Below are positions 10,593 to 49,623 of a stretch of 64,000 nt of DNA, piece by piece. The stretch is taken from assembly GCA_024277355.1 (NCBI GenBank), contig JAJRVL010000011.1, positions 34,155-98,154 of the forward strand. The letters are read 5' to 3'. The notes under the pieces were generated by a model. That model was not told the origin of the DNA and searched no databases. It worked only from the letters and a program-made list of their open reading frames with translations. How positions within the stretch are numbered: the stretch's first letter is position 1; the number at the start of each line of letters is the position of its first letter. The position numbers and the translations under genes are program-made. The DNA comes from an archaeon. Lineage in GTDB: Archaea; Iainarchaeota; Iainarchaeia; Iainarchaeales; 1-14-0-10-31-34.

Positions 10593-10594
10593 TA

Positions 10595-11763: not shown

Positions 11764-12672
11764 TTATTCTGCGAATTGCTCGTATTCTTCTGAATTAAAC
11801 CTGTATAAAAATCGCTTGATTTTTGAATTTTTAAAAGAATATTTTTCTATTACTTTTTCTTTTTTTCCTGAGAATTCCTCAAAAGGTGTTTTTTGTGAGG
11901 GGTCAAACAAATAAAAATTATTTTTGTATTCTGTAATTACAAAAGTATGAGTAGATAAATTTTCCAGTTCTGCTACAACAACAAAAGCTTTTTCATCTCC
12001 TAAAGCATAAAGCAAAGTACATAAAAAAACCGCAATGTCTTCATCATCTGCAATTTTATGTCTTAATATTTCTGAAGGAGCCATCCAATAATTGATTTTT
12101 AAATTTGATTCAACAAAAGAAATTTCTTTTACAACAAAGTCAAACGCTTCTTTTGCAATAGTTAAATAATTTTTTTCAAAAGAATAATCAGAAGAAATTA
12201 ATTCAGCTAAAATTGCCTGAATGCTTAAATCATCAGGATCAATTAATCCTTTGATTTCTCCAATAGTTTTCTCTTCTTTTTCATTTATTATTTCAGTGTA
12301 TTTTTCAAGCAAAAAAGAATAAAGCTTGAATTTAAGTTCTTTTTCTTTTTGTTTGTAATCTATTTCTGAAACTGATCCTAAAGCCTGCCTTAATTTAGAA
12401 TATTTTTCATATAAATCATTGTATTGAGATTGTTTTTTTGCTAATTCTAATTCAAAAACAGCAGTTGATTTTTTTGGTTTAGGAAACTGAATTTCATTTA
12501 ACTTTAATTTTAATTTAGCTAATTTAACTTCAAGTTCAGGTTTAGATAAATCATCTGCTTTTTTCAAAGAAGATTCTAATTCTTCAATTTTTTTCCATAA
12601 TTCCTGTTCTTCTATTGCCTTTGATTTAACTGGGAACATTAAATAAAAGCCCACAGAGAATGATTTAAACAT
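11764..12672 (-). CDS. coiled-coil protein with C-terminal transglutaminase-like (Cys-His-Asp) domain
   Basis: 302 aa. Core IAVFLCTLLYALG ... THTFVITEY ... FYLFDP fits the transglutaminase-like cysteine protease fold. Confidence 0.45.
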   Translation of the reverse strand: MFKSFSVGFYLMFPVKSKAIEEQELWKKIEELESSLKKADDLSKPELEVKLAKLKLKLNEIQFPKPKKSTAVFELELAKKQSQYNDLYEKYSKLRQALGSVSEIDYKQKEKELKFKLYSFLLEKYTEIINEKEEKTIGEIKGLIDPDDLSIQAILAELISSDYSFEKNYLTIAKEAFDFVVKEISFVESNLKINYWMAPSEILRHKIADDEDIAVFLCTLLYALGDEKAFVVVAELENLSTHTFVITEYKNNFYLFDPSQKTPFEEFSGKKEKVIEKYSFKNSKIKRFLYRFNSEEYEQFAE

Positions 12673-12793
12673 AACGAAAAGCGAGAAAATTCGTTGATTG
12701 ACGAAAACGGGCTTTAATTGGCGCGGTTTGCTTTTTTAGCTGAAAAGGTTTTTATTAGACAAGTGTGTTCTATTAAAGTAAAATGGTGATTTT

Positions 12794-13192
12794 TTGAAGG
12801 GACAAATTTCAATTGAATATCTTACTTTAACTGCAATTGTTCTCCTTATTGTAGGAGTAATGTTTGTTTTTGCAATAACAACTGTAAATGAAAACGCAAG
12901 ACTTAATTCAGCTTATTATGCTACAAGAGAATTAGCTAATGCAGCAGATGAAGTAAGTACTAGAAATGGAAGCACTATTGTGGTTGAAATTGAACTGCCT
13001 TCAGATGTAACTTCTTTTTCAACTTTTGGGACAGACATTACAATTGAAATGACGTCTCTTTTAAATTCATTTCAGGTTTTTGATTCAAGCAAGGCATCAT
13101 TACAGCCGACAAATTTTTCCACTTCAGAAGGAACTCATTTTATTGCAGTGAATTCAACTGATTCAAATATCACTTTTACTGAACTTAATTAA
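12794..13192 (+). CDS. archaeal type IV pilin-like protein (class III signal peptide)
   Basis: TTG start. MKGQISIEYLTLTAIVLLIVGVMFV has a KG/Q cleavage motif with E at +5, followed by a hydrophobic helix. Confidence 0.6.
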   Translation: MKGQISIEYLTLTAIVLLIVGVMFVFAITTVNENARLNSAYYATRELANAADEVSTRNGSTIVVEIELPSDVTSFSTFGTDITIEMTSLLNSFQVFDSSKASLQPTNFSTSEGTHFIAVNSTDSNITFTELN

Positions 13193-13203
13193 AGGGATTA
13201 TAA

Positions 13204-13560
13204 ATGAAAGGGCAGGTTTCAATGGAAGTAATTATTGGAGCAATAATTTTATTGCTTGTATTGGTTTTTATCTGGATTTACAGTATTCAAACAAATGAAG
13301 GAATTGATGCATTAAAAAATTCAGTTGAATCAAAATCTTACTGCAGAGAAATTGCAGATACAATTAGTTCAGTTTATGCTTCAGGAACAAAAACTACAAT
13401 AGAATTTTATTCAGAAAAAGACTTTAATTTAAGCAATGGAATGGTTGATGTTAATGGTTTTCTCTGCAGTTATTATGCTGAAGCAGAAGAAAAATTTATA
13501 GCAAAAGGAAACATAAGAATAAAAGATTTGAACGGGGTTGTCGTGATTGAAAATATTTAA
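13204..13560 (+). CDS. archaeal type IV pilin-like protein (class III signal peptide)
   Basis: MKGQVSMEVIIGAIILLLVLVFIWI has the same class III signal architecture. Confidence 0.6.
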   Translation: MKGQVSMEVIIGAIILLLVLVFIWIYSIQTNEGIDALKNSVESKSYCREIADTISSVYASGTKTTIEFYSEKDFNLSNGMVDVNGFLCSYYAEAEEKFIAKGNIRIKDLNGVVVIENI

Positions 13561-14116
13561 GAGAAAATGCTCGGCTGAGCAAAGCGAATGCCGTGCACCG
13601 TCACACCCGAGCGGAATCGGGTCGCGAGCGAAATCGCGAGGGCAGTCAAGTTTAATTGATTTAGTTATTGGGTTTTTTATTTTTGCTTTGATTCTTGCTT
13701 CAATTATGGGAACTATAAATAAAAATACAAAAGATTTCACTAGAAATTCAGAAATAGATGAAATAAATCATGATTCTTTTTTTTCAGTAAAAGAATTAAC
13801 TGAAACAAAAGGTTTTCCTGAAAACTGGGAAATATTAGATGAAAATTCAGTTGAAAAAATAGGTTTAATTGAAAGGAGAAATACAATAAGTGAAGACAAA
13901 GTTGTTGCTTTTTCTAATATGACTTACAGCAAAACAAAAGAACTACTTAAAATAGAAGGATATGATTATTATTTTGTATTAAACGGAGTAGATAATATTA
14001 CTGCAGGAATAAATCCTGTTGGGCAAACAAAATATTCAATTATTACTAAAAGAATTGTAAATTATAAAGGAAGTGAAGCTGAAATTGAATTCAGATTATA
14101 TGAACTCTGGGAATAA
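13547..14116 (+). CDS. pilin-like protein with unusual GC-rich 5' segment
   Basis: The ORF reads through a ~80-nt 66%-GC island, then RGQSSLIDLVIGFFIFALILASIMG, a class III signal-like motif. The true start is uncertain (TTG in the track). Confidence 0.4.
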   Translation: MKIFKRKCSAEQSECRAPSHPSGIGSRAKSRGQSSLIDLVIGFFIFALILASIMGTINKNTKDFTRNSEIDEINHDSFFSVKELTETKGFPENWEILDENSVEKIGLIERRNTISEDKVVAFSNMTYSKTKELLKIEGYDYYFVLNGVDNITAGINPVGQTKYSIITKRIVNYKGSEAEIEFRLYELWE

Positions 14117-16820
14117 AGGATTTACTTTTACTTTAGATTCAATTCTTGCCTTGCTTATAGTTTCAGGAATAGTTATTTCTTCAGGATTATTTTTTACTGA
14201 AGAAAAAACTGAAATTAATTTAAGCCAGGAATTAAATGATTCATTTAATGCAATGGAAGAAACAGGTTATTTGATTAGTCAAGTGGATACAAATGTTTCT
14301 GGTTCAGCACAAAATATTTACAATAAATTAATTGGTTTTTTTCCTGACAGAATTGACTTTAATGTAACTGTAAAAGAATTAGACTTAAATAATACAAACT
14401 GCAGAGCAACACCAACTTTTAACGGCTGTTTTACTGATTCAAATGAATTTACTTTTGGTTCAAGTGTTCCAACAGACAAAACAATTTTTTATGGAAAAAA
14501 ATTAATAATAAAAAAACAACCTCCAGGAGAATGCGATACAAATATGCTTGGATTAGCAGAATATCCTTTTACATTTTATGAAAAAAACGATATCTTGTTT
14601 TTTGCGGGATCTGGAGATTTAAATTTTGTTTTTGATGTAAATGTAACTCCTTCAACTGAAATTGAATGCGACCAGAACATTACAATAGATTTAAGTGCAG
14701 CATTTCCTCCGGGTTATAGAAGACCTGTGGACATAATGCTTGTAATAGACAAAAGCGGTTCAATGAGCTGGGGGGGAAGATATGATACAAGCAGTGCAAG
14801 AGGAATAGATTTAGATGGAAATTATGCATATATTGCAGATTATAGCAATGGAATAAGAAGTTTTGATATTAGTGTTCCTTTAGTTCCTCAGTATTTGGAT
14901 AGATATGATACTTACAGAGCATATGATGTTTTTGTTGATGGAAGTGAAGCTTATTTGGCAGATTATTCATCTGGAATACGGTCAATTGATGTAAGCGATC
15001 CAAATAATATGAGTCAGGATGACAGAGTTGATTTATCTGTAAATTATTCTTTTGGAATAACAGTTAATGGAAATTATGCTTTTGCAGGCAATGGTTCAAG
15101 AGGAGTTGATTCCTATGACATAAGCAACCCAAACAACATGAATCAATTAGACAGATATAATACGCCTGGAACTGCAAGAGGAATTGATGCAAACGGAGAC
15201 TATGTTTATGTTGCAGATGGAGGAAGAGGATTAAGAGTATTAAATGCCTCAGATCCAAATGATTTATCTAATGAAGATTCTTTGGATTTAGGAGGATATG
15301 CTTATGATGTAAGAAATGTTGGAGATTATGCTTTTGTTGCAAATGGTTCAAGAGGATTAGATATTTTTGATGTAAGTGATCCTTCAGACATCAGTTCAAG
15401 AGGGCGGTATAATACTGCTGGAACTTCTTATGGAATTGATGTTGTTGGAAATACAGCTTATATTGCTGACGGAGGAGGAGGATTATATTCAATTGATATT
15501 AGTGATGTTGACAATCCTTCTTTAATTAAGAGATATGATACTCCTTATACTTATTATGATGTAAGAGTGAAAAATGGTTATGCTTTTATTGCAGCAGGAA
15601 ACATGGGGTTAATTACTTTGGATTTAACTTCAGGAACAAAAATGGATGCAGTTCATGCTTCAGCTAATGCTTTTGTTGACTTTAATGAATGGACTGATAA
15701 TGATCAAATGGGAATTGCAAGTTTTAATACAAGTTCAACTTTGGATTCACAATTACTAAAATTAGATGACACAAACAAAACACAATTGAAAAATGATATT
15801 AATGCAATAACTCCTGGCGGAGGAACAAACATTGAAGAAGGAATAAGAGAAGCAACAGATGAATTAATTTCAAGCAGAGCAGATCCTTATGCAATAAAAT
15901 TTATGGTGTTGCTTTCAGACGGAGTATCAACTTCAGGAGATTCACTTGATGCAGCACAAGATGCAAATGCAGAAGGAATAACAATTTATACAATTGGATT
16001 TGGCGGAGATGTAAGTGAATCAGAACTGCAGAATATTGCTAATGCAACTGATGGAAATTATTATTTTGCTTCAGATGCAAATACATTAATAGACATCTAT
16101 AATATTATTGCAGATAAAATTCAGGCTCAAGCAACTGATTCAAATGTAACAATTGTTGTTCCAAGTAATGTAACAATAATTAATGACGGAAACGCATCAA
16201 TAATTGACGGCAATTTAGTTTTTGATTCAGGAAATATTACTCCTGATACTCCCTGGCAGGGAAGTTATATCATTAATATTCCTTGTGATTCAAATTTAAG
16301 CTGCGACACTGCTTCAATTACTTTTCCCGGCCAAGGAAGCTTTTTGTCTTATGTTGATGTAAACGGAGTAACACAAACAGTTGACTGGAATAGTTTTACT
16401 GTTCCAATTCCATTTAAGAAAAGAGACATTACAGTTGAAATTACTAGTGGAGAATTGTTATCTGAAACAGATATTTTTATTGATGTAAATGTATCAAATA
16501 TTGGGGATTTAAATACCGGAACAACAGACTTAAATTTTTATTTAGGAAATGATTCAATCTGCAGTATTGGAGCAGGAAGAACTCTTTTGTCAAATCATTA
16601 TTTAGTTCCGGAATTATGCGGAAGCAATGATGAAAACTGTTCTTTTTCTACAACGCTTTATTTGGATGAATATATGTTAAGTCAGGGAATAATTTGTGCT
16701 GAAGTTAATCCTGACAGAAATTTAAAAGAATGTCCAAATAATAATCTTGATTCAATTCACTGTTATTTAGCTCCAAAAACACAGTTTTATGTAATTGAAT
16801 ACAGAGGATGGATTAAATGA
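14100..16820 (+). CDS. large pilin-led cell-surface adhesin: vWA domain interrupted by a 7-blade LVIVD beta-propeller, plus C-terminal CARDB-like beta-sandwich domains
   Basis: Likely start MNSGNKGFTFTLDSILALLIVSG (pilin-like N-terminus; track start is 14073). MIDAS DIMLVIDKSGSMS at ~14730, then 7 LVIVD-type repeats (GIDxxGNYAYIADxxxGIRSFDISDPNN), then the rest of a vWA fold (FMVLLSDG, ITIYTIGFGG). Many N-x-S/T sequons. Confidence 0.7.
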   Translation: MNSGNKGFTFTLDSILALLIVSGIVISSGLFFTEEKTEINLSQELNDSFNAMEETGYLISQVDTNVSGSAQNIYNKLIGFFPDRIDFNVTVKELDLNNTNCRATPTFNGCFTDSNEFTFGSSVPTDKTIFYGKKLIIKKQPPGECDTNMLGLAEYPFTFYEKNDILFFAGSGDLNFVFDVNVTPSTEIECDQNITIDLSAAFPPGYRRPVDIMLVIDKSGSMSWGGRYDTSSARGIDLDGNYAYIADYSNGIRSFDISVPLVPQYLDRYDTYRAYDVFVDGSEAYLADYSSGIRSIDVSDPNNMSQDDRVDLSVNYSFGITVNGNYAFAGNGSRGVDSYDISNPNNMNQLDRYNTPGTARGIDANGDYVYVADGGRGLRVLNASDPNDLSNEDSLDLGGYAYDVRNVGDYAFVANGSRGLDIFDVSDPSDISSRGRYNTAGTSYGIDVVGNTAYIADGGGGLYSIDISDVDNPSLIKRYDTPYTYYDVRVKNGYAFIAAGNMGLITLDLTSGTKMDAVHASANAFVDFNEWTDNDQMGIASFNTSSTLDSQLLKLDDTNKTQLKNDINAITPGGGTNIEEGIREATDELISSRADPYAIKFMVLLSDGVSTSGDSLDAAQDANAEGITIYTIGFGGDVSESELQNIANATDGNYYFASDANTLIDIYNIIADKIQAQATDSNVTIVVPSNVTIINDGNASIIDGNLVFDSGNITPDTPWQGSYIINIPCDSNLSCDTASITFPGQGSFLSYVDVNGVTQTVDWNSFTVPIPFKKRDITVEITSGELLSETDIFIDVNVSNIGDLNTGTTDLNFYLGNDSICSIGAGRTLLSNHYLVPELCGSNDENCSFSTTLYLDEYMLSQGIICAEVNPDRNLKECPNNNLDSIHCYLAPKTQFYVIEYRGWIK
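14794..15640 (+). repeat. seven tandem LVIVD-type repeats (~126 nt each) inside the adhesin gene
   Basis: Repeated peptide pattern Y(A/D)V...G(N/D)YA(Y/F)(I/V)A(D/N)G..G(I/L)...D(I/V)SDP. Confidence 0.6.
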
Positions 16821-17776
16821 AAAATAAAGGAATCTTTTTTCTTTTAATGGGATTAATTCTTTCTCTTTTAGTTTTGGGTTTTGGATTTAAAATAAACCAG
16901 CAGTATCTTGAAGCAGAAAAAAAATCATTTAATTCAAATGCATTACAACAAGTTAAAAACAAATACTCAAATATTAATTCAGTTAAAGACTTTTACAGAG
17001 AAGGAACAATAAAAACTTATTTTGAAAGAATTGTTCCGATTACTTATTCGGTTGATGAAAATACAATAAGCATTACTCAACAGCTTCCGATAAAAAAAGC
17101 TTTAGTGCGAAATTTTTTTGATTTTGTTAATGCATTTGAAATTTTCACTGAAACAACTGATTCATTAGTTTATGACGGAATAGATGTTGAAATTGAAACT
17201 GTTCAAAACAGTTTATGGGGAGGAACAGATGAAAACATTGTTTTAATGATTAAACCTCAATGCAAAAAATATTCAATTACAGATTATAATTCAATGCATT
17301 TTTATGGTTCAAATGAATGCGACAATGCTTTTGATATCAGTTTAATTGAAAGAATTGACATAAATATTACTGTAAGTTCAGATGATGATTTTAACAGATT
17401 ATCCTGTAATTTCGGAGGCGATTTAGTCTGTTATCAGGAAACTTATGTGCCTGCAAACCCAAATCCATTTATTGAAATAAACTTGATTGATTCAGCCTGC
17501 CCTAATTGCGATTTAAATTCAGATACAAGAACAATAAAAAAACATTTTACTCCTACTTCTGCAAACACAGTAATTTTTTCATGTTCAGGAACATGCACTT
17601 CTCTTCCAATAGAAATATTATTTAATGAAAATAATACTGAAATAAGGCATTCAGGAACAACAATAAGTGTTAAAACTGAATTTTTGTTTACAGACAAAAT
17701 AACTGAATTTGAATTAAATGATTTAAACATAAGTTTAACTGACTCAAAATTTAGTATAACAAAAACAAATAAGTGA
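16817..17776 (+). CDS. hypothetical pilus-associated protein with N-terminal hydrophobic anchor (minor pilin-like)
   Basis: 319 aa. MKNKGIFFLLMGLILSLLVLGF N-terminus, Cys-containing body. ATGA overlap with the adhesin. Confidence 0.4.
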   Translation: MKNKGIFFLLMGLILSLLVLGFGFKINQQYLEAEKKSFNSNALQQVKNKYSNINSVKDFYREGTIKTYFERIVPITYSVDENTISITQQLPIKKALVRNFFDFVNAFEIFTETTDSLVYDGIDVEIETVQNSLWGGTDENIVLMIKPQCKKYSITDYNSMHFYGSNECDNAFDISLIERIDINITVSSDDDFNRLSCNFGGDLVCYQETYVPANPNPFIEINLIDSACPNCDLNSDTRTIKKHFTPTSANTVIFSCSGTCTSLPIEILFNENNTEIRHSGTTISVKTEFLFTDKITEFELNDLNISLTDSKFSITKTNK

Positions 17777-17780
17777 AAAA

Positions 17781-18842
17781 ATGAATGCCATGAATTTAAT
17801 TTCAATAATTGCTTCAATAGCAATAATAATTGCAGTGTTTTTTGTCGCTAATGAAAACATTGTTAATTTTGAAAACACAAAAACACAAATAGAAATTCAA
17901 TCAAAAGAAAACTTTGAACAAGGAGAAAATGCAGAATTTATAATAAACATAGAAAGCGGAAAAGAAATAACAAAAATAATTTATATTTCTCCCACAAAAA
18001 GAGAAGAAAAAAATTGCGGAAAAAAAACATGCGTTTTGACTTTTAAGGAAATATTTACAGAAAAAGGAGTTTTTTTTATTGAAATAAAAGTTGAAATAGG
18101 AAAAGAAACATTCAGTGAAAAAAAGAAAGTTTATGTAAATGCCGCAGGAAAAAAATGTTCTGATGGAACTGCTTTTGGGTTATGCTCTTTAAACAAACCA
18201 CAATACTGCAATAACGGCAAACTTGAATATAACTGTGAAAAATGCGGATGTGAACAAGGAGAATGCATTAATAATAAATGCAGTTATTCAGGAACAACTG
18301 AAATTACAGGAATTTCACTTGAAAGAACATTTTTTGAGCCAAATCAGGAAGTGAAAATTAATTTAAATTCAAAAGAAAATAGTTTAGTTAATGTTGTAAT
18401 TGAATGGAAAAAAGACAATAAAACAGAAAAAACAGAAACAAAAAATACTTCATTAAATTATGTTCTGTCAGTTTCTCCGCCAAAAGAAGGAGTATATGAA
18501 TTAAACTTAGTTTTTGAAGAAAAAGTTTTTTCAGTTGAAAACATAACAATAAGAAATGACTCAACACCCCCAAAAACACCTGAAGGAATTATTGCAAGCA
18601 AAAGAAACGGAAAAATACTTATTGCATGGAATCCAAATACTGAAGCTGATTTAATGGAATACAGAATTTACAGGAGTAAAGAAGATAATCAGGCGTTTAC
18701 AACTTATACTATGGCAGAAACTGCATCAAAAAATGAAACCGGGAAAGAACTTGAAATATGGTCAACAAATTATTTTTACATTACTTCAGTTGACTATTAC
18801 GGCAATACATCAAAGCCAAGTGCAATAATTGAAGCAACGTGA
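17781..18842 (+). CDS. hypothetical surface protein, N-terminal TM anchor, Cys-rich middle, FN3-like C-terminal domain
   Basis: 353 aa. C-terminus PPKTPEGIIASKRNGKILIAWNPN...YRIYRS...YFYITSVDYYGNTSKPS resembles a fibronectin type III domain. Confidence 0.4.
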   Translation: MNAMNLISIIASIAIIIAVFFVANENIVNFENTKTQIEIQSKENFEQGENAEFIINIESGKEITKIIYISPTKREEKNCGKKTCVLTFKEIFTEKGVFFIEIKVEIGKETFSEKKKVYVNAAGKKCSDGTAFGLCSLNKPQYCNNGKLEYNCEKCGCEQGECINNKCSYSGTTEITGISLERTFFEPNQEVKINLNSKENSLVNVVIEWKKDNKTEKTETKNTSLNYVLSVSPPKEGVYELNLVFEEKVFSVENITIRNDSTPPKTPEGIIASKRNGKILIAWNPNTEADLMEYRIYRSKEDNQAFTTYTMAETASKNETGKELEIWSTNYFYITSVDYYGNTSKPSAIIEAT

Positions 18843-18888
18843 AAATTAAAAAGAATAAATAACTAAATATAACAACAGGTAATTAAAA

Positions 18889-20655
18889 ATGGAAAAAGAA
18901 CAGCAGAAAAAAAATTTATTAATAAGCAAAATGCTTGAAGCAAAAAGAATAGAATTAGGAATCATAGAAAACCAGTTATTATACAAACTAAAAATTTTAT
19001 TTAAAAAACCTGAAAAAACTAAAAGCCAAAAAATAAATGAACTAAAAAAAAGTCTTGAAAAAAAAGAAACAGACGAACTTGAATTAATGCTTGTTGAAAA
19101 AGAACACGCATTAATAAAACTTGAAACAACAGTAAAAGAAAAAAAAGACAAAGAAAAATTAAAAGAAGTAATAAAACTAGTTGAAAAAATAAAAAACAGT
19201 GAAGGCGAAAGAGGCAAAATAGGAATGGAAATAGGCTTAAAAAGAAAAGAAATAAAAGAACTCAAAAAAGAAGTAGAACAGAAATTAAAAGATATAACCA
19301 GAGAAAAAACTATTCTGACTCCAAAAAAGAAAAAAATTAAGAAAACAGAAATAAAAAAAGGAAAAAAAACTAAAAAGAAAAAAGAAAAGAATTCTTCAAC
19401 TCTTCTAAAAAAAAGAAAAAAAGAAAAAGTTTCAGGTTCATCCAGAAAATTAAAGAAAAAAACTAAAATAGAAATGAAAAAACCAAAAATTTCTTTTTCT
19501 TCACCTGAAGAAGAATTAAAAGCAAAAAGAGAACAAGAAGTAAAAGAAAAAAGGAAAAAAGCCATGGCTGCATTTCATCAGAATTTTACTTCAGGAAACG
19601 AAACTTTAATTAACATTAAAGGAAACGCTCAAATAGTTTCAGGAACAAGAGGCACAGGAACAACAGGAATAAACAATAAAGAAACAGCAAAACAAACTGA
19701 ATATGCTGAAAGCAGAAAAAATGAAGAACTTGAATTTGACATACAGAAAACAAAAGAAAAAATAAAGAACTTAAAATCCGCTTTTTTCCACAGACAAATA
19801 AATGAAGAAACATACAAGAAAAAACAGTTTGAATACCAAGAAGAATTAAGCTCACTTGAAATGGAAAAAAAAAGGCCAAAAAAAAGAAGTTTTGCTCCTG
19901 TTCAAAAAACAGAATCTGTTTCAGCTTATGCAGGATTAAAAACAGTTCAGGATGAAAGCGTTCAGTTTGCAACAAAACACACTCAAAAAAGCAGAGCAAA
20001 AGTAAAAAATGCATTAAAGAGATTTAAAAAAGAATTTAATGCAGGTTCAAAAACAAAAGCCAATTTAGATTCCGAAGAAAAAACACGTGTTAAAACTGAA
20101 CCAGAAGAAATAAAACCAACCGGAATAATAAAAAGACTTGCTCCTGGAACAAGCCAGGAAAAAGAAATGGAAATGGAAAAAAAGCTTTATAGGGTAATGC
20201 AAAAAAATCAGATTGACCAAAGCAGGATTAGAAGAGAATTTGAATTTGTTTCAGCTAAAGATTTAATGAAAAGGTTTGACAAAATACTTGATGTAATTGA
20301 CAACAAGTATTCTCAAACAGAAAAACCTGCAGAAAAAGAAGAAAAGCCATTTGAAGAAGGATTGTATGTAACAAACAAACAAACTTCCCAAAAAACAGGA
20401 GAAATAAGAGACATAAAAGAAAAAATAATAGTAACTGATTTTGACAGATTACTTGAATTAGTAAATAAAAAAGGAAAAGTAAACGAAAAAGAAGCAGAAA
20501 AAACACTTAAATTAAGTCCAGAAAGAATAAAAGAATGTTATACTGTATTAGAAAAGAATGACTTAATTAGAATAGAATACCCTATGTTTGGAGGAACACA
20601 AATTTTTTCAAAAAATTTTGTTGAACCAAAAAAAATTAAAAAGAAAAAAAAGTGA
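18889..20655 (+). CDS. Lys/Glu-rich coiled-coil protein with low-complexity poly-K linker and C-terminal winged-helix-like domain
   Basis: 588 aa. Long KKKK-rich tract. C-terminus IIVTDFDRLLELVNKKGKVNEKEAEKTLKLSPERIKECYTVLEKNDLIRIEY. It lies between pilin genes and the pilus ATPase. Confidence 0.4.
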   Translation: MEKEQQKKNLLISKMLEAKRIELGIIENQLLYKLKILFKKPEKTKSQKINELKKSLEKKETDELELMLVEKEHALIKLETTVKEKKDKEKLKEVIKLVEKIKNSEGERGKIGMEIGLKRKEIKELKKEVEQKLKDITREKTILTPKKKKIKKTEIKKGKKTKKKKEKNSSTLLKKRKKEKVSGSSRKLKKKTKIEMKKPKISFSSPEEELKAKREQEVKEKRKKAMAAFHQNFTSGNETLINIKGNAQIVSGTRGTGTTGINNKETAKQTEYAESRKNEELEFDIQKTKEKIKNLKSAFFHRQINEETYKKKQFEYQEELSSLEMEKKRPKKRSFAPVQKTESVSAYAGLKTVQDESVQFATKHTQKSRAKVKNALKRFKKEFNAGSKTKANLDSEEKTRVKTEPEEIKPTGIIKRLAPGTSQEKEMEMEKKLYRVMQKNQIDQSRIRREFEFVSAKDLMKRFDKILDVIDNKYSQTEKPAEKEEKPFEEGLYVTNKQTSQKTGEIRDIKEKIIVTDFDRLLELVNKKGKVNEKEAEKTLKLSPERIKECYTVLEKNDLIRIEYPMFGGTQIFSKNFVEPKKIKKKKK

Positions 20656-20659
20656 TTAA

Positions 20660-22180
20660 ATGAAAGAAAAAGTTTTAGAAACATATAAAGTAAAATCAAT
20701 TGAAACAGAAATAGAAGTAAATATTATTGAAAGAGAAAAAGAAGTAGTAAGAATTTATTTTTTAAATTTTCCTGAATTTGGAGCAGGAACAAAAGCCGTA
20801 TTAAAAAATTTAAAAAGAAGCATTATAACTGATTCAACAATTCAGGCAGAAAAAATGATGGATCCTAATTTTGTTGATTCACTTAAAAGAAAATTTCAGG
20901 GAAGAGCAGAAAAAATACTTGAAAAAGAACTTCCAAATATAGCTGAAGGCTCAAAAAGTTTGTTAATAGGATTATTATTAGAAGAAATGCTTGGATTAGG
21001 CAAATTAGAGTTTTTATTAAATGACGGAAACATTGAAGAAATAGTTGTAAATACTGCAACTGAACCAGTATGGATTTATCATAAAGGATATGGCTGGCTG
21101 AAAACAAATGTTTTTATTACTCCTGAAAAAGAAATACAAAATTATGCAAGTATTATTGCAAGAAGAATTGGAAAACAAATTACAATATTAAATCCTTTGC
21201 TTGATGCACATTTAATTACAGGAGACAGAGCTAATGCAACTTTATTTCCTATTTCAAGCAAAGGAAACACTATTACAATAAGGCGTTTTAGAAGAGAACC
21301 ATACACTATAACTGATTTTGTTGAAAACCGAACACTTAACACCGATATAATGGCTTTAGTATGGCTTGCAATGGAATATGAATTAAACATTATTTTTTCA
21401 GGAGGAACAGGTTCAGGAAAAACCACTTCATTAAATGTTTGTCTGCCTTTTATTCAGCCAAACCAAAGAATTTTAAGTATAGAGGACACAAGAGAACTTT
21501 CACTTCCAGAATATCTCCACTGGGTTCCATTAACTACAAGAGAACCAAACACTGAAGGAAAAGGCGAAGTAACAATGCTTAATTTATTAGTTAACTCTTT
21601 AAGAATGCGTCCAGACAGGCTGATTGTAGGAGAAATCAGAAGGCAAAGAGAAGCAGAAGTATTATTTGAAGCAATGCATACAGGACATTCAGCTTACACT
21701 ACTTTTCACGCTAACACAGCAGAAGAAACAATCAGAAGATTAGTTAATCCTCCAATTGAAATTCCAAAAACAATGCTTGATTCAGTTCACTTAAATATAG
21801 TAATGTTTAGAAACAGAAGATTAAATGTAAGAAGAGTGCTTCAGGTAGCTGAATATGTAACTGAAAGAAGAGGAGACACAGAAGAAGTAAAAGCAAATAT
21901 TTTATATCGATGGAAAGGAGCAACAGATACAATAGAAAAACATTCTGAAAGCATTAGATTATTTGATGAATTAGGATTACATACAGGTTTAAGCAAACAG
22001 GAAATGAACAATGAATTAAAAACAAAAAAGAAAATTCTTGACTGGATTACATCAAACAAAATTCGTTCAATACAGCATGTTGGAAGGATAATGGCAGATT
22101 ATTATATGAATAAAGACAACATAATTGAATTAGCAGAAAAAAACAAAAAACCAGATTATATTTTTGAGGAGAAAAAATGA
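20660..22180 (+). CDS. type IV pilus/archaellum-type assembly ATPase (FlaI/PilB/TadA family)
   Basis: 506 aa. Walker A FSGGTGSGKTTSLN, Asp box and Walker B region, His box (EAMHTGHSAYTTFHAN), typical of secretion NTPases. Confidence 0.85.
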   Translation: MKEKVLETYKVKSIETEIEVNIIEREKEVVRIYFLNFPEFGAGTKAVLKNLKRSIITDSTIQAEKMMDPNFVDSLKRKFQGRAEKILEKELPNIAEGSKSLLIGLLLEEMLGLGKLEFLLNDGNIEEIVVNTATEPVWIYHKGYGWLKTNVFITPEKEIQNYASIIARRIGKQITILNPLLDAHLITGDRANATLFPISSKGNTITIRRFRREPYTITDFVENRTLNTDIMALVWLAMEYELNIIFSGGTGSGKTTSLNVCLPFIQPNQRILSIEDTRELSLPEYLHWVPLTTREPNTEGKGEVTMLNLLVNSLRMRPDRLIVGEIRRQREAEVLFEAMHTGHSAYTTFHANTAEETIRRLVNPPIEIPKTMLDSVHLNIVMFRNRRLNVRRVLQVAEYVTERRGDTEEVKANILYRWKGATDTIEKHSESIRLFDELGLHTGLSKQEMNNELKTKKKILDWITSNKIRSIQHVGRIMADYYMNKDNIIELAEKNKKPDYIFEEKK

Positions 22181-23070
22181 TTGATAAAAGTGAAATAATT
22201 CCTTTCAATATTCTTCCAGTTCCATTAATAAAAAAACTTTCAATGAAATTTTATGGTACAGGAACAAAATTATCAAAATTTTTTCCTGATTTAAAATTAG
22301 AGTTAGCTCAGGCAGAATTAGCTTACAGCGAAAAAGAATACAGTGCAATAATCATTACAATGGCAGTAATTTACGGTGTTATTGGATTAATAATTGGATT
22401 ATTGTTTGGTTTCAGGCTTTTTCCTGATGGATTTATTTTAGTTGGGTTAGGCGGAGGAGCATTAGTTGGTTTTTTTGTAATGTTTCAGGTTGCTTTTTAT
22501 CCAAAAATAAAAGGAAAAAAGAAAATAAGAGAAATTGAAAGAAATTTAATTTTTGCTTTAAGGACAATGAGTGTAGAAATAAAATCAGGAGTTTCATTAT
22601 TTGATTCACTTAATATTATAGCACAAGGAGATTATGGTGCTTTATCAATTGAATTTGGCAAAGCAGTAAAAGAAATTGAAACAGGAACAATGGAAGAAAA
22701 TGCATTAGAAAAAATTGCAAGATATAATCCTTCATTGTTTTTCAGAAGAAGTATATGGCAGATAATTAATGGAATGAAAGCAGGAGCAGATGTAAGTTCA
22801 GTAATGGAAGAATTAGTTGCAACAATGATAAGAGAAGAAAAATTACAGATAACAAGATACGGTAATTCAATGAAATTACTTTCATTAATGTACATGATGT
22901 TAGGTGTAATAATTCCTTCTTTAGGAATAACTTTTTTGATTATATTATCTTCTTTTCCTCAAATGCAGTTAGGAGAATTATTATTCTGGATGTTATTAGG
23001 AGTTATTATTGTAGGTGAATTTATGTATTTAGGAATATTAAAATCAAAAACACCAAATTTAATGGGATAA
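22177..23070 (+). CDS. TadB/FlaJ-like platform membrane protein (one T2SSF domain)
   Basis: 297 aa. T2SSF-like block LIFALRTMSVEIKSGVSLFDSLNIIAQGDYGALSIEFGKAVKEIETGTMEENALEKIA plus TM helices. Confidence 0.7.
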   Translation: MIDKSEIIPFNILPVPLIKKLSMKFYGTGTKLSKFFPDLKLELAQAELAYSEKEYSAIIITMAVIYGVIGLIIGLLFGFRLFPDGFILVGLGGGALVGFFVMFQVAFYPKIKGKKKIREIERNLIFALRTMSVEIKSGVSLFDSLNIIAQGDYGALSIEFGKAVKEIETGTMEENALEKIARYNPSLFFRRSIWQIINGMKAGADVSSVMEELVATMIREEKLQITRYGNSMKLLSLMYMMLGVIIPSLGITFLIILSSFPQMQLGELLFWMLLGVIIVGEFMYLGILKSKTPNLMG

Positions 23071-23071
23071 A

Positions 23072-23467
23072 ATGTATGAAAAAATTAGTTCAATGATTCC
23101 AAGAAATGTCTTAAAGGCATTTAAAAACGAATTAACATATGCAGGAATAGACTTAGATGAAAAAAACTTTGTTGGTTTTGTGTTTGTTTTTGGTTTTGCA
23201 ACAGCAATTGCAGCAGGATTTGCTTTAAATTTCTTTTTTTCACTTCATTTTTTTATTGGATTTATTACAGGATTTATTTTAACTGTAGGGGGAATTTATT
23301 ACCTGCTTAATCAGGCAGGAGACAGCAAAGCAAGATTTGTAGAAAAAATTCTGCCTGACGCACTTCAATTAATTGCTTCAAACATGAAGTCAGGATTAAC
23401 AACAGAAAAAGCATTATTGGTTTCATCAAGACCTGAATTTGGTGCATTAGCAATAGAATTAAAATAA
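23072..23467 (+). CDS. TadC/FlaJ-like platform protein, N-terminal fragment (ends at an in-frame TAA)
   Basis: 131 aa. Ends ...ILPDALQLIASNMKSGLTTEKALLVSSRPEFGALAIELK* in the middle of a T2SSF domain. It is in the same frame as the next ORF. Confidence 0.5.
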   Translation: MYEKISSMIPRNVLKAFKNELTYAGIDLDEKNFVGFVFVFGFATAIAAGFALNFFFSLHFFIGFITGFILTVGGIYYLLNQAGDSKARFVEKILPDALQLIASNMKSGLTTEKALLVSSRPEFGALAIELK

Positions 23468-23479
23468 GCAAGCAAAAAA

Positions 23480-24055
23480 ATGATGACTGGAGAAAGAACT
23501 GAAACAGCCTTAAAAGAAATGACTTTAAAAATAAGATCAAAAATTTTCAGTAAAACAGTCTGGCTTATAACAGAAGGAATTAATTCAGGCGGAGAAATGG
23601 CTAACTTGCTTTTACAGTTGTCTAATGATTTAAGAGAGCAGAATGCATTACAGGAAGAAGTAAAAGGAAATGTTTCAATGTATGTAATTTTGATTTTTTT
23701 TGCTTCAGTTATTGGCGCACCATTAATGTTTGGAATAAGTTCTTTTATTGTACAGATAATGGCAAAACAAGCAGGTGGTTTATCAGGATTATCAGAAGAA
23801 AGTTTAGCTTTAGCTTCATCTCAAGGAGCATTTTCATCTGGAACAGGAATAAGTATTACAGCTGACTTTATTGTAATGTTTTCAATGATAACTTTGTTTG
23901 TTATTTCAGTTTTTGGTTCACTTACAATAGGAATAATAAGTACTAGAAGTGAAAAAGGCGTAATAAAGAATATTCCTTTAATGTTAATTTCATCTTATGT
24001 GATTTACTTTATTGTTTTAACTGTATTACAATCAACTTTTAGTTCATTGGTTTAA
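23480..24055 (+). CDS. TadC/FlaJ-like platform protein, C-terminal fragment
   Basis: 191 aa. Continues the same T2SSF domain (MMTGERTETALKEMTLK...GINSGGEMANLLLQLSNDLREQ), paralogous to the 22177 ORF, then 3 TM helices. Confidence 0.5.
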   Translation: MMTGERTETALKEMTLKIRSKIFSKTVWLITEGINSGGEMANLLLQLSNDLREQNALQEEVKGNVSMYVILIFFASVIGAPLMFGISSFIVQIMAKQAGGLSGLSEESLALASSQGAFSSGTGISITADFIVMFSMITLFVISVFGSLTIGIISTRSEKGVIKNIPLMLISSYVIYFIVLTVLQSTFSSLV

Positions 24056-24289
24056 AACAAAAATAACGCTAAAAAAAAAGTTAATTAATTCTTAATTCAA
24101 TAAAAACATAAACAACTAAAAGAACAAAAATAATTACAATTAAAAAATAAAAAAAAATACTAATTAAAAATATAAACAACTAAAACAGAAAAATAAATTA
24201 AAATTCAATAAATATCAATAACTAAAAAAAAATAATTATCATTAACTAAAAAATTAAAAAAAAAGAAAAAGAAAAGTGGAAGTTTAAGT

Positions 24290-24724
24290 TTAAACTGTTC
24301 CACTGCAAGTTGTTTTTTCTGATTTGGTTATTCCGCCTGTAACTGTATAATTAATTGTTACGTCTTCTGTAATGTTTCCTGAAAAAGTGTTTCCGCCTAA
24401 AACAAATGTGTTTTCATCTGTTTTTGCAAGCGAGGCATCTCCTGATGCAGAACCGTCTGCCCAAACAATAGTACCAGAACTTCCTGTAAAGCTATTAATG
24501 GTTATTGCATTAGGATTAGTGTTTTTAATTGTCAACTGAATGGTGTCTGCGTTAAAATCATAGTCTTTAATAAACAACTTTCCTCCGGTTGCAGTGCATT
24601 GTTTTGGAGTATTAAACACACCAAAAGCAAATAAGGCTGCAATTACAATTACAATTACAACCAAAGCCCAACCATAAGTCATCAGGTATTCCAATGCAGA
24701 TTGTCCTTTTGTATCTTTAAACAT
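24290..24724 (-). CDS. archaeal type IV pilin (Pilin_N / class III signal peptide)
   Basis: 144 aa. MFKDTKGQSALEYLMTYGWALVVIVIVIAALFAF is the canonical archaeal pilin N-terminal domain. Confidence 0.75.
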   Translation of the reverse strand: MFKDTKGQSALEYLMTYGWALVVIVIVIAALFAFGVFNTPKQCTATGGKLFIKDYDFNADTIQLTIKNTNPNAITINSFTGSSGTIVWADGSASGDASLAKTDENTFVLGGNTFSGNITEDVTINYTVTGGITKSEKTTCSGTV

Positions 24725-24868
24725 TTATCTTCCTCCTTTTAAATTTAAAAAACAATAAATGAATACTATTAGAAGGTTTATTGTATTTAAATGTTTTGTG
24801 GTTTAAGAAAACAAAACCACTGTTTAATAAAAAAAAAATAAATAAAAAAATGTTTAAAACTGAAAGGC

Positions 24869-24885
24869 AGTTATTTTAAATAACT
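24869..24885. promoter_or_regulatory. 17-bp perfect palindrome agttattttaaataact overlapping a TATA-like element, ~40 bp upstream of the KaiC-like gene
   Basis: Inverted repeat read directly from the sequence. Position is typical for an archaeal promoter/operator. Confidence 0.35.
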
Positions 24886-24927
24886 TAAACCTATTTTATT
24901 AGAAGACTTAATTTAAAGTGAAATTTA

Positions 24928-25626
24928 ATGCCAAGATTAACTGACAGAACAAAAACAGGAGTTCCAGGATTAGATGAATTACTGGACGGCGGGATTCCAA
25001 GAGGAAATTTAGTTGTATTAGCAGGAGACCCTGGTTCAGGAAAAACCTGTTTTTGCCTTGAATATCTATACAAAGGAGCATTGGATTACAACGAACCAGG
25101 AATATATATTTCATTAGAAGAAAGCTATGCTGAAATAATACGAAACGGAAGAGAATTTGGATATGAATTAGAAGAATTAATAAAGAAAAAAATGCTGATA
25201 ATTGAAACAGTAGAATTATATGATTTTGAAAAACTGAAAAATTTAATTGAAGATTCAATTCAGATAATTAATGCAAAACGATTAGTAATTGATCCTGGAG
25301 TAATTTTCAGATTATATTTTGATAGAGAATTAGATGCAAGAAAAAGAATAATGAGTTTAGGAAAAATGCTTAAATTAATTGACTGCACTACTATAATAAC
25401 AAATGAAATTAATTTAGACAAAACAAGAAGTTTATTTGGATTAGAAGAATATGTGGCTGACGGAGTGTTGTTGCTGTATCATACAAAAATAGAAAACAGG
25501 TTTGTAAGAAGTTTAGGTGTATTAAAAATGAGAGGAACAAAAATATCAGAAAAACTTCATCCAGTTACAATCGGCCCAACAGGAATAAAAGTTTTATCAA
25601 AACAAGAATTATTTGAGGATATATAA
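24928..25626 (+). CDS. KaiC/RadA-family (RecA-superfamily) ATPase, single domain
   Basis: 232 aa. GLDELLDGGIPRGNLVVLAGDPGSGKTCFCLEYL (Walker A) and Walker B LVIDPG. Confidence 0.75.
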   Translation: MPRLTDRTKTGVPGLDELLDGGIPRGNLVVLAGDPGSGKTCFCLEYLYKGALDYNEPGIYISLEESYAEIIRNGREFGYELEELIKKKMLIIETVELYDFEKLKNLIEDSIQIINAKRLVIDPGVIFRLYFDRELDARKRIMSLGKMLKLIDCTTIITNEINLDKTRSLFGLEEYVADGVLLLYHTKIENRFVRSLGVLKMRGTKISEKLHPVTIGPTGIKVLSKQELFEDI

Positions 25627-26455
25627 AATGAAGAAAAAAAAAGCAAAACAAAAGGTTAAACTGAAAAAAGCAGTTAAAAAACCAAAAAACAAAAAAAAGC
25701 CAAGTTCAATTAAAGAATTAGAAAACTTACTTACAAAACCATTAAAGCAGAAAAGAACTTTTGTGACAAAAGAAGAAAAAAGTATTGTAAAACAAAAAAA
25801 TAAAATAAACAGCAAAATTGAAATGAAAACAAATCTTGAACAAGAAATCCATCCTGATGCTGAATTATCAGAATTAATTGACCCAAAAAGAGGCATTGAC
25901 TTAAAGATATTAAGATATTTAGAAGAACTTCCAAAAGAACAGTTTACTGCATTGCTTTTAGTTGAACCAACAAATTACTCTAAAATAAACTATGAATTAT
26001 TAAGGCTTTTAATAAACCATACAAAAGGAAAAGGAATATATGTAACTTTAAATCGTGCTTATGAATTTGTAGAAGAAACACTAAAAAAAGAAAAAATTGA
26101 TACAGAACAAATAGTTTTCATTGATGCAATAAGCAAAGGAACAGGAAAAAACATTGTATCCAGAGAAAACGTTGAATACATTGAATCCCCAAGAGATTTA
26201 ACTGCATTAAGTGTAATATTAGATGAAACATACCAGAAAATGACAGAAAAACCAAAATTTATGGTGTTTGATTCAATCAGCACTTTATTGATTTACAATG
26301 ATGTTTCTTCAGTTGAAAGATTTACTCATTTAATTATAGGAAAATTAAGGGAATGGCGGATGAAAGGAGTATTATTAATGGTTAAATCAGAAGAACACAG
26401 AGGAGTAGTTAATTCATTAAGCCAGTTCTGCGACAGAATTCTTGAAATAATATAA
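25613..26455 (+). CDS. KaiC-like domain protein lacking Walker A (predicted inactive), poly-K N-terminus
   Basis: 280 aa. RecA-like core (FMVFDSISTLLIYNDVSSVERFTHLIIGKLREWRMKGVLLMV) without a GxxxxGKT P-loop. Paralog of the 54615 ORF. Confidence 0.45.
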   Translation: MRIYKMKKKKAKQKVKLKKAVKKPKNKKKPSSIKELENLLTKPLKQKRTFVTKEEKSIVKQKNKINSKIEMKTNLEQEIHPDAELSELIDPKRGIDLKILRYLEELPKEQFTALLLVEPTNYSKINYELLRLLINHTKGKGIYVTLNRAYEFVEETLKKEKIDTEQIVFIDAISKGTGKNIVSRENVEYIESPRDLTALSVILDETYQKMTEKPKFMVFDSISTLLIYNDVSSVERFTHLIIGKLREWRMKGVLLMVKSEEHRGVVNSLSQFCDRILEII

Positions 26456-26471
26456 AAATCAAAAACAGAAA

Positions 26472-27050
26472 CTATAAATCAAAAACAAAATTCTTTTTCA
26501 CTGAATTAAAAGGAAAAGCAGTTAATTCAACAAACAATTTTTTTTCTTTAACTTCAAAGAAAAAATTATAATCCATCATTTTTTTTATATTCATTAAAAC
26601 AGCATTATCATGCAGTCTTTCATCAATAAAACACACAACTGAATAATTCAGTTCTTTTGCTTTTCTTGTTTCAAAAAACAAAAAAGAATAAACTGCATTA
26701 GAAGGATTAAATGAAAGTAAAGAAGACAAAGAATCAAATAATAAAATTCCTTTGTTTTCTTTTTTGCCTTGAACTGAATGAATTGAAGAAGAAATTTCAG
26801 GAAGAGAAAACCCTTCAATTTCAACTGCTTTTTTTCCAAAACCATATTTTGATATAACAAAAAAGTCATCCATTAAAGAAGAATAATTTGATGGATTAAA
26901 TAAAACTAAAATGTTTTTTTGGTTTTTGTTTTTTTTAAACATTAATTCAATTAGTTTTTTTGCCTGAACTGACTTTCCGGAAAACATAATGCTTGAATTA
27001 GGCTTTACTCCTAATAAATCAAAAGAAAAATTCATAATAAAAAAACACAT
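26472..27050 (-). CDS. degenerate KaiC/RecA-like domain protein
   Basis: 192 aa. Remnant P-loop IMFSGKSVQAKK and Walker-B-like LLFDSLSSLLSF. Confidence 0.35.
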   Translation of the reverse strand: MCFFIMNFSFDLLGVKPNSSIMFSGKSVQAKKLIELMFKKNKNQKNILVLFNPSNYSSLMDDFFVISKYGFGKKAVEIEGFSLPEISSSIHSVQGKKENKGILLFDSLSSLLSFNPSNAVYSFLFFETRKAKELNYSVVCFIDERLHDNAVLMNIKKMMDYNFFFEVKEKKLFVELTAFPFNSVKKNFVFDL

Positions 27051-27066
27051 TAAGCAAATAAAAGGT

Positions 27067-28374: not shown

Positions 28375-28417
28375 ATAAAAAAATAAAAGATTAGAAAGAA
28401 TTAAACGGTTATGCAAA

Positions 28418-48688: not shown

Positions 48689-48703
48689 TTAAAATGAAAA
48701 AAA

Positions 48704-49555: not shown

Positions 49556-49597
49556 ATTAATAGTTAGATAAAAAAAAAAGCAACAATATAAAAAGGA

Positions 49598-49611: not shown

Positions 49612-49623
49612 TTAGTGAGAGTT

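Follow-up and report, generated by a model that had tools for sequence, protein, structure and literature searches.

What does a run of ten closely packed genes in an Iainarchaeota genome build, and can this genome still build it? The genes lie on the plus strand at 12794-24055 of the 64,000-nucleotide stretch of contig JAJRVL010000011.1 that we analysed (the window, to which all coordinates refer), separated by gaps of -17 to +46 nucleotides (nt), and a convergent open reading frame (ORF) follows at 24290-24724. A sequence-only reading had called the region a complete locus for an archaeal type IV pilus, comprising multiple pilins, an adhesin, a FlaI/PilB-type ATPase and a platform divided between two genes, and profile searches and synteny bear out the core of that list. 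With good confidence we take the genes to form an operon that encodes an adhesive type IV pilus, built on the archaeal Epd/Tad-like plan and conserved among Iainarchaeota-like DPANN archaea. The first grounds for this are a T2SSE ATPase, two T2SSF proteins and a set of class III signals, all encoded together.

Window proteins were searched with Pfam, NCBIfam and PDB profiles and compared by BLASTP with 80 related DPANN loci (numbered with the prefix L; 6,675 ORFs). Full 10-kb flanks were present in 28 of the 80, and in eight of those 28 the ATPase is at least 60% identical to the one described here. Structures were modelled with AlphaFold2 and structural neighbours sought with Foldseek. The nearest relatives of the ATPase, at 86-89% identity among species-representative genomes, belong to DPANN metagenome-assembled genomes (MAGs) labelled Candidatus Iainarchaeum, Micrarchaeota or simply 'archaeon', and the next, at 50-60%, to Woese-, Aenigm-, Alti-, Pace- and Nanoarchaeota. 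By these relatives the genome, a small one, is that of a DPANN member, most probably close to the Iainarchaeota, in line with the DPANN-like host proposed from the sequence alone. G+C content is about 28% across the window, the pilus locus being the same as its surroundings. Neither tRNA genes nor Rfam families (gathering thresholds) were detected in the window.

The product of the motor gene matches Pfam T2SSE (4.4e-37), and among PDB entries it aligns with the Archaeoglobus secretion ATPase 2OAP (238 bits, 1.8e-69), FlaI (181 bits, 2.7e-52), the Tad motor CpaF (167 bits, 5.6e-48) and VirB11 (83 bits). The NCBIfam models give 277 bits for FlaI (equivalog cut-off 550), 198 for TadA, 144 for the bindosome ATPase BasE and 141 for VirB11. 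By these scores the enzyme is closest to the archaeal pilus and archaellum ATPases and those of Tad systems, which supports a pilus operon; it does not group with non-pilus secretion ATPases, the outcome that the sequence-only reading had named as fatal to its case.

Since FlaI is the best NCBIfam model and a KaiC/FlaH-like ATPase is encoded nearby, the locus might be asked to explain motility by an archaellum. The FlaI score, however, is far short of its cut-off, and the 232-aa KaiC-like protein, whose gene lies 0.9 kb downstream of the motor genes, scores 44 bits with the ArlH model (cut-off 215) against 116-161 bits with KaiC models. The platform is split, the locus carries a large adhesin, and no archaellin, ArlF/G, ArlCDE or ArlX match was found among the locus proteins scanned. 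On these sub-cut-off scores and the lack of Arl families among the scanned proteins we reject an archaellum, which seems to us scarcely credible. KaiC-family ATPases are associated with archaeal type IV pili (PMC4858521), and two kaiC copies accompany DPANN Tad-like clusters (PMC9563170). The reported association supports the pilus operon, in which the KaiC-like ATPase is probably a regulator or accessory.

A pilus also requires pilins, and their N-termini are gathered at this locus. All six frames of the window were scanned for [KR][GAS] ahead of a strongly hydrophobic segment, where a start codon lay at most 40 residues upstream; this gave nine matches in eight distinct proteins. Six of the matches, two of them overlapping, fall in the locus ORFs of 132, 118, 189, 906/915 and 319 aa, so that five of the eight distinct scan-positive proteins of the window are encoded here; the other three lie in an 85-aa ORF at 1628-1885 (-), at the N-terminus of a DMT-type transporter and in an internal helix of platform protein 2. 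The convergent PilA-type pilin, KG/QSALEYLMTYGWAL (a slash marks the predicted cleavage site throughout), falls below the hydrophobicity threshold of the scan yet evidently carries the same type of signal. The motif is kept in orthologues of the five locus proteins and of PilA in the fetched loci, and these [KR]G/x N-termini look like class III (prepilin) signals with predicted cleavage after the glycine.

The three consecutive pilin genes that had been proposed at the head of the operon all show [KR]G/Q followed by a hydrophobic stretch, kept in their orthologues. Pilin 1 matches Pfam Class_IIIsignal at 6.6e-5 (23.2 bits, just under the cut-off of 23.7), and this model is matched by 14 of the 34 members of the pilin 1 and pilin 2 families. 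In the combined alignment of those 34 sequences (A4) Q+1 and E+5 are invariant, and the pilin 1 motif is kept in 24 orthologues. The mature N-termini of pilin 1 and PilA share GxxxxEY, which we take to be the Flp-type pattern. The invariant Q+1 and E+5 of pilins 1 and 2 and the GxxxxEY of pilin 1 and PilA support the pilus operon. An orthologue of pilin 3 with [KR]G/Q is present in 36 of the 80 loci. When pilin 3 and the 319-aa protein are pooled with their orthologues (A5, 42 sequences), five members match Pfam DUF7287 (best 2.6e-7).

Two further minor-pilin-like proteins had been proposed downstream of the adhesin, one of them with an FN3-like domain, and here the two part company. The 319-aa protein has the class III motif, [KR]G/[IVL][FL]F being kept in most of its 16 orthologues, and no Pfam or NCBIfam match. 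The 353-aa protein is secreted or anchored and not a pilin: it lacks the [KR]G motif and the N-termini of five orthologues (L010, L013, L015, L016 and L021) are lipobox-like, ending in GC. Its domain matches are a weak Ig-like one (0.019) and fn3_4 at E=0.13, too little to uphold an FN3 domain. The convergent gene, which had been described as a canonical Pilin_N pilin, does encode a pilin: it is found near 44 of the 80 related loci with an N-terminus almost invariant across those 44. The family label is less secure, as Pilin_N matches at E=0.037, under the Pfam cut-off. No second pilus locus or further PilA paralogue was found in the window, and the PilA-type protein is probably the major pilin.

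The start of pilin 3 has a peculiarity of composition. The stretch 13555-13662, directly after the pilin 2 stop, is the sole one in the window to reach at least 55% G+C (measured over 60 nt at a time, where the mean is 28%, the standard deviation 6.7% and the peak here 68%), and it codes for the basic leader of pilin 3, which at 31 aa is unusually long. The sequence can be read as three hairpins in a row; the corresponding stretch of L001 is related but shorter, and the leader in L003 is AT-rich. We rejected a structured RNA here, since Rfam gives no match, folding yields a z-score of -1.26 and the island is not conserved in L003.

The fourth gene encodes the putative adhesin, a protein with strong matches to LVIVD (1.4e-34) and VWA (3.9e-22), as had been proposed, although 'giant' overstates its 906 aa. 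The ORF is open from 14073 (915 aa) and ATG 14100 gives the 906-aa form, which is also the start of an entry 100% identical to it in the protein collection (P0004). The N-terminus is class III-like, KG/F. In the AlphaFold2 model, made from an alignment of 16 sequences (mean predicted local distance difference test, pLDDT, 82.3), a long N-terminal helix (12-54) and an alpha/beta head (57-200) form a pilin-like part. Strand beta1 of the vWA domain (210-217) follows and ends in DKSGS (DxSxS), after which 28 strands at 226-508 make up seven four-stranded blades, the LVIVD propeller. The first vWA helix is not reached until 514-526, within the remainder of the domain (514-675), and C-terminal beta-sandwich domains complete the chain. 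The predicted vWA fold has an intact metal-ion-dependent adhesion site (MIDAS; DxSxS...T...D), whose residues D217, S219, S221, T576 and D607 are invariant in 16 of 16 sequences, and metal binding is predicted. Because of the modelled strand order and the positions of the MIDAS residues, the model places the propeller inside the vWA beta1-alpha1 loop, directly beside the MIDAS; the VWA match, which begins at profile position 28 (residue 534 of the 915-aa ORF), is consistent with this.

Foldseek against the PDB returned the sortase-pilus tip adhesin SpaC as the best neighbour (2.5e-13), together with WD40-type propellers and the type V tip protein Mfa5. This model, with its invariant MIDAS and these nearest folds, supports a pilus operon, and by analogy the protein may be an adhesin. 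PilY1 of type IVa pili, the modular vWA pilin PilB of Streptococcus sanguinis, SpaC and Mfa5 all display a MIDAS vWA on a pilus. PilY1 in addition combines its vWA with a seven-bladed propeller, which recalls the arrangement here as a likeness of architecture and not of sequence. Unlike all four, the protein described here would carry the propeller inside the vWA domain and the whole unit fused to a pilin-like N-terminus. Two of its orthologues (L013 3941-6280 and L022 5687-7996) keep DxSGSM and the C-terminal vWA part, with an insert of about 130-150 aa at the position held here by the 290-aa LVIVD propeller. The insertion site thus appears, from these sequences, to be an exchange point for binding modules.

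The core parts of a type IV filament do not by themselves tell its function, and the filament might instead serve DNA uptake, secrete proteins by means of a pseudopilus or belong to a surface assembly of the bindosome kind. The ATPase matches the BasE model at 144 bits, and for DPANN a part of pili in taking up DNA has been proposed (PMC9563170). We nevertheless find such uses improbable: a pilin-borne vWA with an intact MIDAS and a propeller, with pilus tip adhesins as nearest folds, points to binding, and in the Pfam scans the locus showed neither competence genes nor any substrate-binding protein that carries a class III signal.

The adhesive pilus operon is not peculiar to this genome. Iainarchaeota-like MAGs such as L001, L003, L010, L013, L015, L016 and L019 share its gene order, which runs from a transglutaminase-like gene on the minus strand through pilins 1-3, the adhesin, the 319-aa pilin and the 353-aa protein to the wHTH (winged helix-turn-helix) gene, the ATPase, platforms 1 and 2, PilA on the minus strand, KaiC, DUF7504 and a 474-aa helical protein. 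This shared order and the packing of the genes on one strand again favour a pilus operon. Both platform genes are present in 27 of the 28 loci with full flanks, and PilA and KaiC in 23 of 28 each. Among the eight closest of these loci, pilin 1, pilin 3, the adhesin, the 319-aa pilin, KaiC, DUF7504 and the transglutaminase-like protein each occur in seven and the gene for the 474-aa protein in six; a 192-aa DUF7504/FlaH-like protein has a BLAST match in L003 alone among the 80 loci. From this synteny it follows that the functional neighbourhood probably reaches beyond the limits first drawn, to about 11764-28491. Upstream of pilin 1 a Shine-Dalgarno-like GGTGAT and a TATA-like TTTTTATTA can be read in the sequence.

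The platform is encoded by two genes. The first product has a T2SSF domain (1.7e-16) and aligns with residues 27-242 of the 484 of UpsF and 8-248 of the 555 of ArlJ; the second, also with one T2SSF domain, aligns with UpsF 264-480 of 484, and the two are paralogues with 28% identity. They correspond to the halves of UpsF/ArlJ, matching the fission seen in Epd and Tad systems (PMC6668835), and so support the pilus operon. The sequence-only reading was right that there are two single-T2SSF genes, and what it had presented as a departure from the two-domain FlaJ is a known arrangement: Denise et al. (2019, PMC6668835) describe fission into two single-T2SSF genes as the defining trait of the Epd-like pili and of the Tad systems of bacteria, and Makarova et al. 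(2016, PMC4858521) note that euryarchaeal clades 1 and 2 commonly have two tadC genes. Its labels, TadB-like and then TadC-like, would have to be exchanged, since by the mapping of Denise et al., used here in place of TadB/TadC profiles, the TadC-like half would be encoded by gene 1 and the TadB-like half by gene 2.

Several observations weigh against this interpretation. Three of the pilin-like proteins of this window have no curated family match in Pfam or NCBIfam. PilA, at 144 aa (about 137 aa when mature), is not a short Flp/EpdE-like pilin as in Epd and Tad systems, and the operon pilins span 118-189 aa. Tip location, adhesion and any host interaction are inferred. No prepilin peptidase candidate is present in the 64-kb window, where the only polytopic ORFs are the DMT-type transporter and a 119-aa ORF with no Pfam match; prepilin peptidases are often encoded away from pilus loci (PMC4858521). 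An in-frame TAA at 23465-23467 interrupts platform gene 2 and leaves two ORFs in the same frame, 23072-23467 (131 aa) and 23480-24055 (191 aa). If the stop is read as E, the T2SSF domain spans aa 98-220 (1.8e-13), and the stop, at aa 131, is inside this cytoplasmic domain. Because of this codon the locus as written is not complete, contrary to the first description, and the lack of a peptidase candidate in the window tells against that word as well.

Could the stop mean that the locus is a recently disabled pseudo-operon and that no pilus is assembled in this organism? The question concerns present function and not the identity of the locus. Platform gene 2 is a single ORF in all 65 related loci that contain both halves, so the stop, placed inside the T2SSF match, is unique to this genome. 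The codon at its position is GAA in L001, AAA in L003 and CAA in L002, and a single first-position substitution relative to any of the three gives TAA. TAA is also a normal stop in the window: it is the commonest one and ends 15 of 25 checked genes, which makes reassignment or recoding of this codon implausible. Yet no decay is seen in the sequence flanking the stop (71-76% identity to L001 and L003), and all other operon genes are intact. Moreover, the second ORF restarts at ATGATG (23480), an ancestral sequence 12 nt downstream of the TAA, which could allow re-initiation and hence two polypeptides, and a single-base error or minority variant in a metagenome assembly would look identical. The stop may be a nonsense mutation of very recent date, it may divide the protein into two re-initiated polypeptides, or it may be one wrong base in the assembly; we think it unlikely, though by no means negligibly so, that the pilus has been lost.

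The gene ahead of the ATPase encodes a protein of 588 aa. It is rich in lysine (22.4%) and glutamate (13.9%), matches no Pfam or NCBIfam model, lacks any predicted membrane helix, and is conserved in its C-terminal part only. In its AlphaFold2 model a segment of three helices is joined by a disordered linker to a canonical winged helix (H-beta-H-H-beta-beta, pLDDT above 90). The protein had been described as a poly-lysine coiled coil with a C-terminal winged helix; the K/E-rich composition and the winged helix hold, and the coiled coil is not supported, a crude test having shown no 3.5-residue (heptad) hydrophobic periodicity (best z 1.8). The signature TDFDxLLxLV...vEE[CW]AxILEe..LI.i.YP.fG emerges from an alignment of 31 wHTH sequences. 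The family profile matches an IclR wHTH in the PDB at 4.8e-4, its members weakly match TrmB (11 of 31) and HTH_24 (6 of 31), and Foldseek returned generic winged helices only (ESCRT-II, MarR/ArsR, TFE and eS25), at a best E of 0.018 that is not significant.

A profile hidden Markov model of this domain finds 75 ORFs among the 6,675 of the 80 loci. A wHTH ORF is upstream of the ATPase in 72 of the 72 loci with enough upstream sequence, which supports the pilus operon; in 70 of them it directly adjoins the ATPase gene, often overlapping it, and in the other two it ends 250-300 nt upstream. The homologues range from 67 to 990 aa, and transmembrane helices are predicted in 27 of the 75. A search of 1.84 billion representative proteins assigns 2,857 to the family at E<=1e-3, of which 1,295 reach E<=1e-10. 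In a word-indexed search the C-terminal 319 aa gave 3 matches and the profile 16, none with a family name, and named members are called 'hypothetical' and have no Pfam domain. The winged helix thus marks a large, so far unannotated protein family. The earlier statement that the protein has no obvious counterpart holds for characterised or annotated proteins, none having been found, and fails in that the domain is a universal neighbour of this ATPase clade. The searchable literature yielded no description of a winged-helix partner of archaeal pilB/pilC, which is weak evidence of novelty. One representative, P0142 (657 aa), has five matched wHTH stretches, suggesting that tandem-repeat versions exist.

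The protein might instead be an ordinary DNA-binding transcription factor of the operon, with no part in the motor, an alternative to which we give an appreciable but less than even chance. The domain is canonical in the model, weak matches link its relatives to DNA-binding domains of the TrmB, HTH_24, MarR and IclR types, the long poly-K tracts could bind nucleic acid, and membrane-bound and other regulators are known in archaeal type IV pilus and archaellum loci (PMC4858521). On the other hand, in 70 of 72 loci the gene immediately precedes that of the ATPase, and the two often overlap, which is the pattern of a stoichiometric subunit, many homologues carry transmembrane helices, and the domain is slightly acidic (mean net charge -1.2), its third helix, vEE[CW]AxILEe, being acidic and hydrophobic with no conserved basic residues. 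Because of the tight coupling to the ATPase gene, the frequent membrane anchoring and the domain composition, we favour a motor adaptor over a classical DNA-binding regulator. Among archaellum proteins, ArlX is likewise helical, cytoplasmic or membrane-anchored, and encoded beside the motor ATPase, and ArnR is a membrane-anchored wHTH regulator (PMC4858521, in part). The 588-aa protein differs from both in that no sequence similarity was found, its wHTH is C-terminal and slightly acidic, and its N-terminal part is very variable.

It is tempting to go further and speculate that the wHTH family is an obligatory fourth core part of the DPANN motor, an ATPase adaptor and not a transcription factor, and that with the module-exchanging vWA pilin it defines a DPANN-specific pilus architecture. 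We hold this tentatively, with more doubt than belief. If true, the gene order of the motor would be wHTH-ATPase-platform-platform, with an adaptor that is often membrane-anchored and analogous to ArlX, GspL or PilM, and the loop beside the MIDAS would take exchangeable modules, an LVIVD propeller here and shorter inserts in relatives.

How, then, would the parts work together? What the sequences show is the gene content and domain architecture, the conserved signal motifs, the operon-like packing, the synteny and the interrupted gene. From characterised type IV filaments we infer how the filament would be assembled, which protein would sit at its tip, that it would adhere and what the wHTH and KaiC-like proteins would do, as in the following model. 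Prepilins would be inserted in the membrane and cut after the Gly of [KR]G by a peptidase encoded elsewhere. A hexameric ATPase would drive a heteromeric platform of the two single-T2SSF paralogues, the FlaJ/UpsF halves, which would lift pilins from the membrane into the filament. The operon pilins (132, 118, 189 and 319 aa) and the 906-aa modular pilin would form the priming and tip complex and the separately transcribed PilA-type pilin the shaft. At the tip, the vWA with its MIDAS and the adjacent seven-bladed propeller would make a metal-dependent binding head. The wHTH protein may be a cytoplasmic motor accessory, its relatives in other DPANN lineages often being membrane-anchored, and the neighbouring KaiC-like ATPases may modulate the system, likewise from the cytoplasmic side. 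In this genome the machine would have been recently inactivated or would run on a split platform protein, unless the base is an assembly error.

Which of the known systems does the locus resemble most? Like the Epd pili of Methanococcus maripaludis and the Tad/Flp systems, it has a FlaI/TadA ATPase gene followed by two contiguous single-T2SSF platform genes, several minor pilins in the operon with a separately encoded major pilin, and GxxxxEY-type mature N-termini; the KaiC-like ATPase encoded nearby may correspond to their RecA/KaiC-type secondary ATPase. Unlike them it has no TadZ/FleN-type ATPase, secretin or dedicated peptidase in the locus, and a wHTH gene precedes its ATPase. With euryarchaeal clade 2, the clade of Haloferax volcanii PilA1-6/PilB3-PilC3, it shares a stand-alone PilA-type major pilin with a highly conserved hydrophobic N-terminus, FlaFind-positive minor pilins of 250-550 aa and an association with KaiC-family ATPases, and two tadC-like genes are common in that clade (PMC4858521); here, however, pilins, adhesin and motor lie in one operon, and the host belongs to the DPANN, which the census of Makarova et al. 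(PMC4858521) barely covered. The Tad-like clusters of Nanohaloarchaeota and Undinarchaeota (PMC9563170) also combine TadA/TadB/TadC-type genes with KaiC copies and have no peptidase in the cluster. Those reports state that no pilins could be annotated, whereas here pilins, an adhesin and a wHTH partner are identified and syntenic. Because the short pilin of Epd and Tad systems is missing and the placement rests on scores and not on phylogeny, we assign no subtype and file the locus under neither Epd/Tad nor clade 2.

Table 1. Genes of the putative pilus operon and its syntenic surroundings (window coordinates; the slash marks the predicted cleavage site).
Feature	Coordinates	Strand	Remarks
Transglutaminase-like protein, 302 aa	11764..12672	-	Pfam DUF553 1.4e-5, CEPT76_peptidase 4.4e-6; divergent from operon
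Minor pilin 1, 132 aa	12794..13192	+	MKG/QISIEY
Minor pilin 2, 118 aa	13204..13560	+	MKG/QVSMEV
Minor pilin 3, 189 aa	13547..14116	+	31-aa basic leader, then RG/QSSLIDLV
Modular pilin-adhesin, 906 aa	14100..16820	+	NKG/FTFTLDS; vWA + LVIVD
Minor pilin-like protein, 319 aa	16817..17776	+	MKNKG/IFFLLMG
Secreted or anchored cysteine-rich Ig-like protein, 353 aa	17781..18842	+	No class III motif
K/E-rich cytoplasmic protein, 588 aa	18889..20655	+	C-terminal winged helix ~aa 515-575
FlaI/TadA-family secretion ATPase, 506 aa	20660..22180	+	T2SSE; Walker A GGTGSGKTT
Platform protein 1, 297 aa	22177..23070	+	T2SSF; N-terminal half of FlaJ/UpsF
Platform protein 2, interrupted (131 + 191 aa)	23072..24055	+	C-terminal half of FlaJ/UpsF
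Stand-alone PilA-type pilin, 144 aa	24290..24724	-	MFKDTKG/QSALEYLMTYGWAL
Single-domain KaiC-like ATPase, 232 aa	24928..25626	+	Pfam KaiC 2.1e-59
Degenerate KaiC-like protein (DUF7504), 280 aa	25613..26455	+	DUF7504 2.1e-9, DUF7090 9.8e-7; overlaps KaiC gene
Weak DUF7504/FlaH-like protein, 192 aa, association uncertain	26472..27050	-	DUF7504 0.039, FlaH 0.0029
Helical protein, 474 aa	27067..28491	-	No significant family match

The genes around the pilus operon add some observations of their own. The divergent transglutaminase-like protein is of the DUF553/CEP76-peptidase-like kind, for which we know of no role in type IV pili. Upstream of it, genes for phosphoglycerate kinase and glyceraldehyde-3-phosphate dehydrogenase at 9360-11581 (-) adjoin the locus directly and are syntenic in L002, L003, L008 and L015; the N-terminus of the dehydrogenase, MIRVAINGFGRIGR, resembles the bacterial/eukaryotic class I type as judged by eye. 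A paralogue of the DUF7504 protein (202 aa, KaiC/FlaH-like, 33% identity) is encoded at 54615-55223 (+), far from the pilus locus. Elsewhere in the window, ORFs at 1-979 (-), 3643-4161 (+) and 60239-60997 (+) have lipobox-like signal peptides ending in SGC, TGC or FGC, and the organism probably makes lipoproteins. Bacterial-type genes of the methylerythritol phosphate/deoxyxylulose phosphate (MEP/DOXP) route lie at 46744-52038 (+), with Dxr at 46744-47760, IspD at 47999-48688, IspF at 49615-50145 and Dxs at 50215-52038 and Pfam matches between 5.7e-42 and 2.2e-99. Since archaea normally use the mevalonate route, these sequences suggest acquisition from bacteria.

Dependence on contact with other cells is generally supposed for DPANN archaea. 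The Iainarchaeota (Diapherotrites) have been discussed as possibly free-living, so the pilus may or may not be the main host-interaction apparatus that the sequence-only reading had proposed. The kind of system that we describe is ordinary and leaves the known picture of type IV filaments unchanged. What the locus and its relatives supply is a parts list for a DPANN pilus. It comprises a conserved group of minor pilins, a pilin of the PilA type for the shaft and, for the tip, a modular protein that combines vWA and propeller and whose insertion site varies; to these are added the winged-helix partner to which the motor is universally linked and a syntenic KaiC module. These parts are direct targets for cryo-electron tomography, proteomics and heterologous expression, and the universal wHTH partner and the propeller-in-vWA modular pilin are the features that may deserve follow-up. 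The nonsense codon in platform gene 2 recalls the fission by stop codon that has been proposed for the origin of TadB and TadC, and this one codon offers a natural experiment on whether such pili can be dispensed with.

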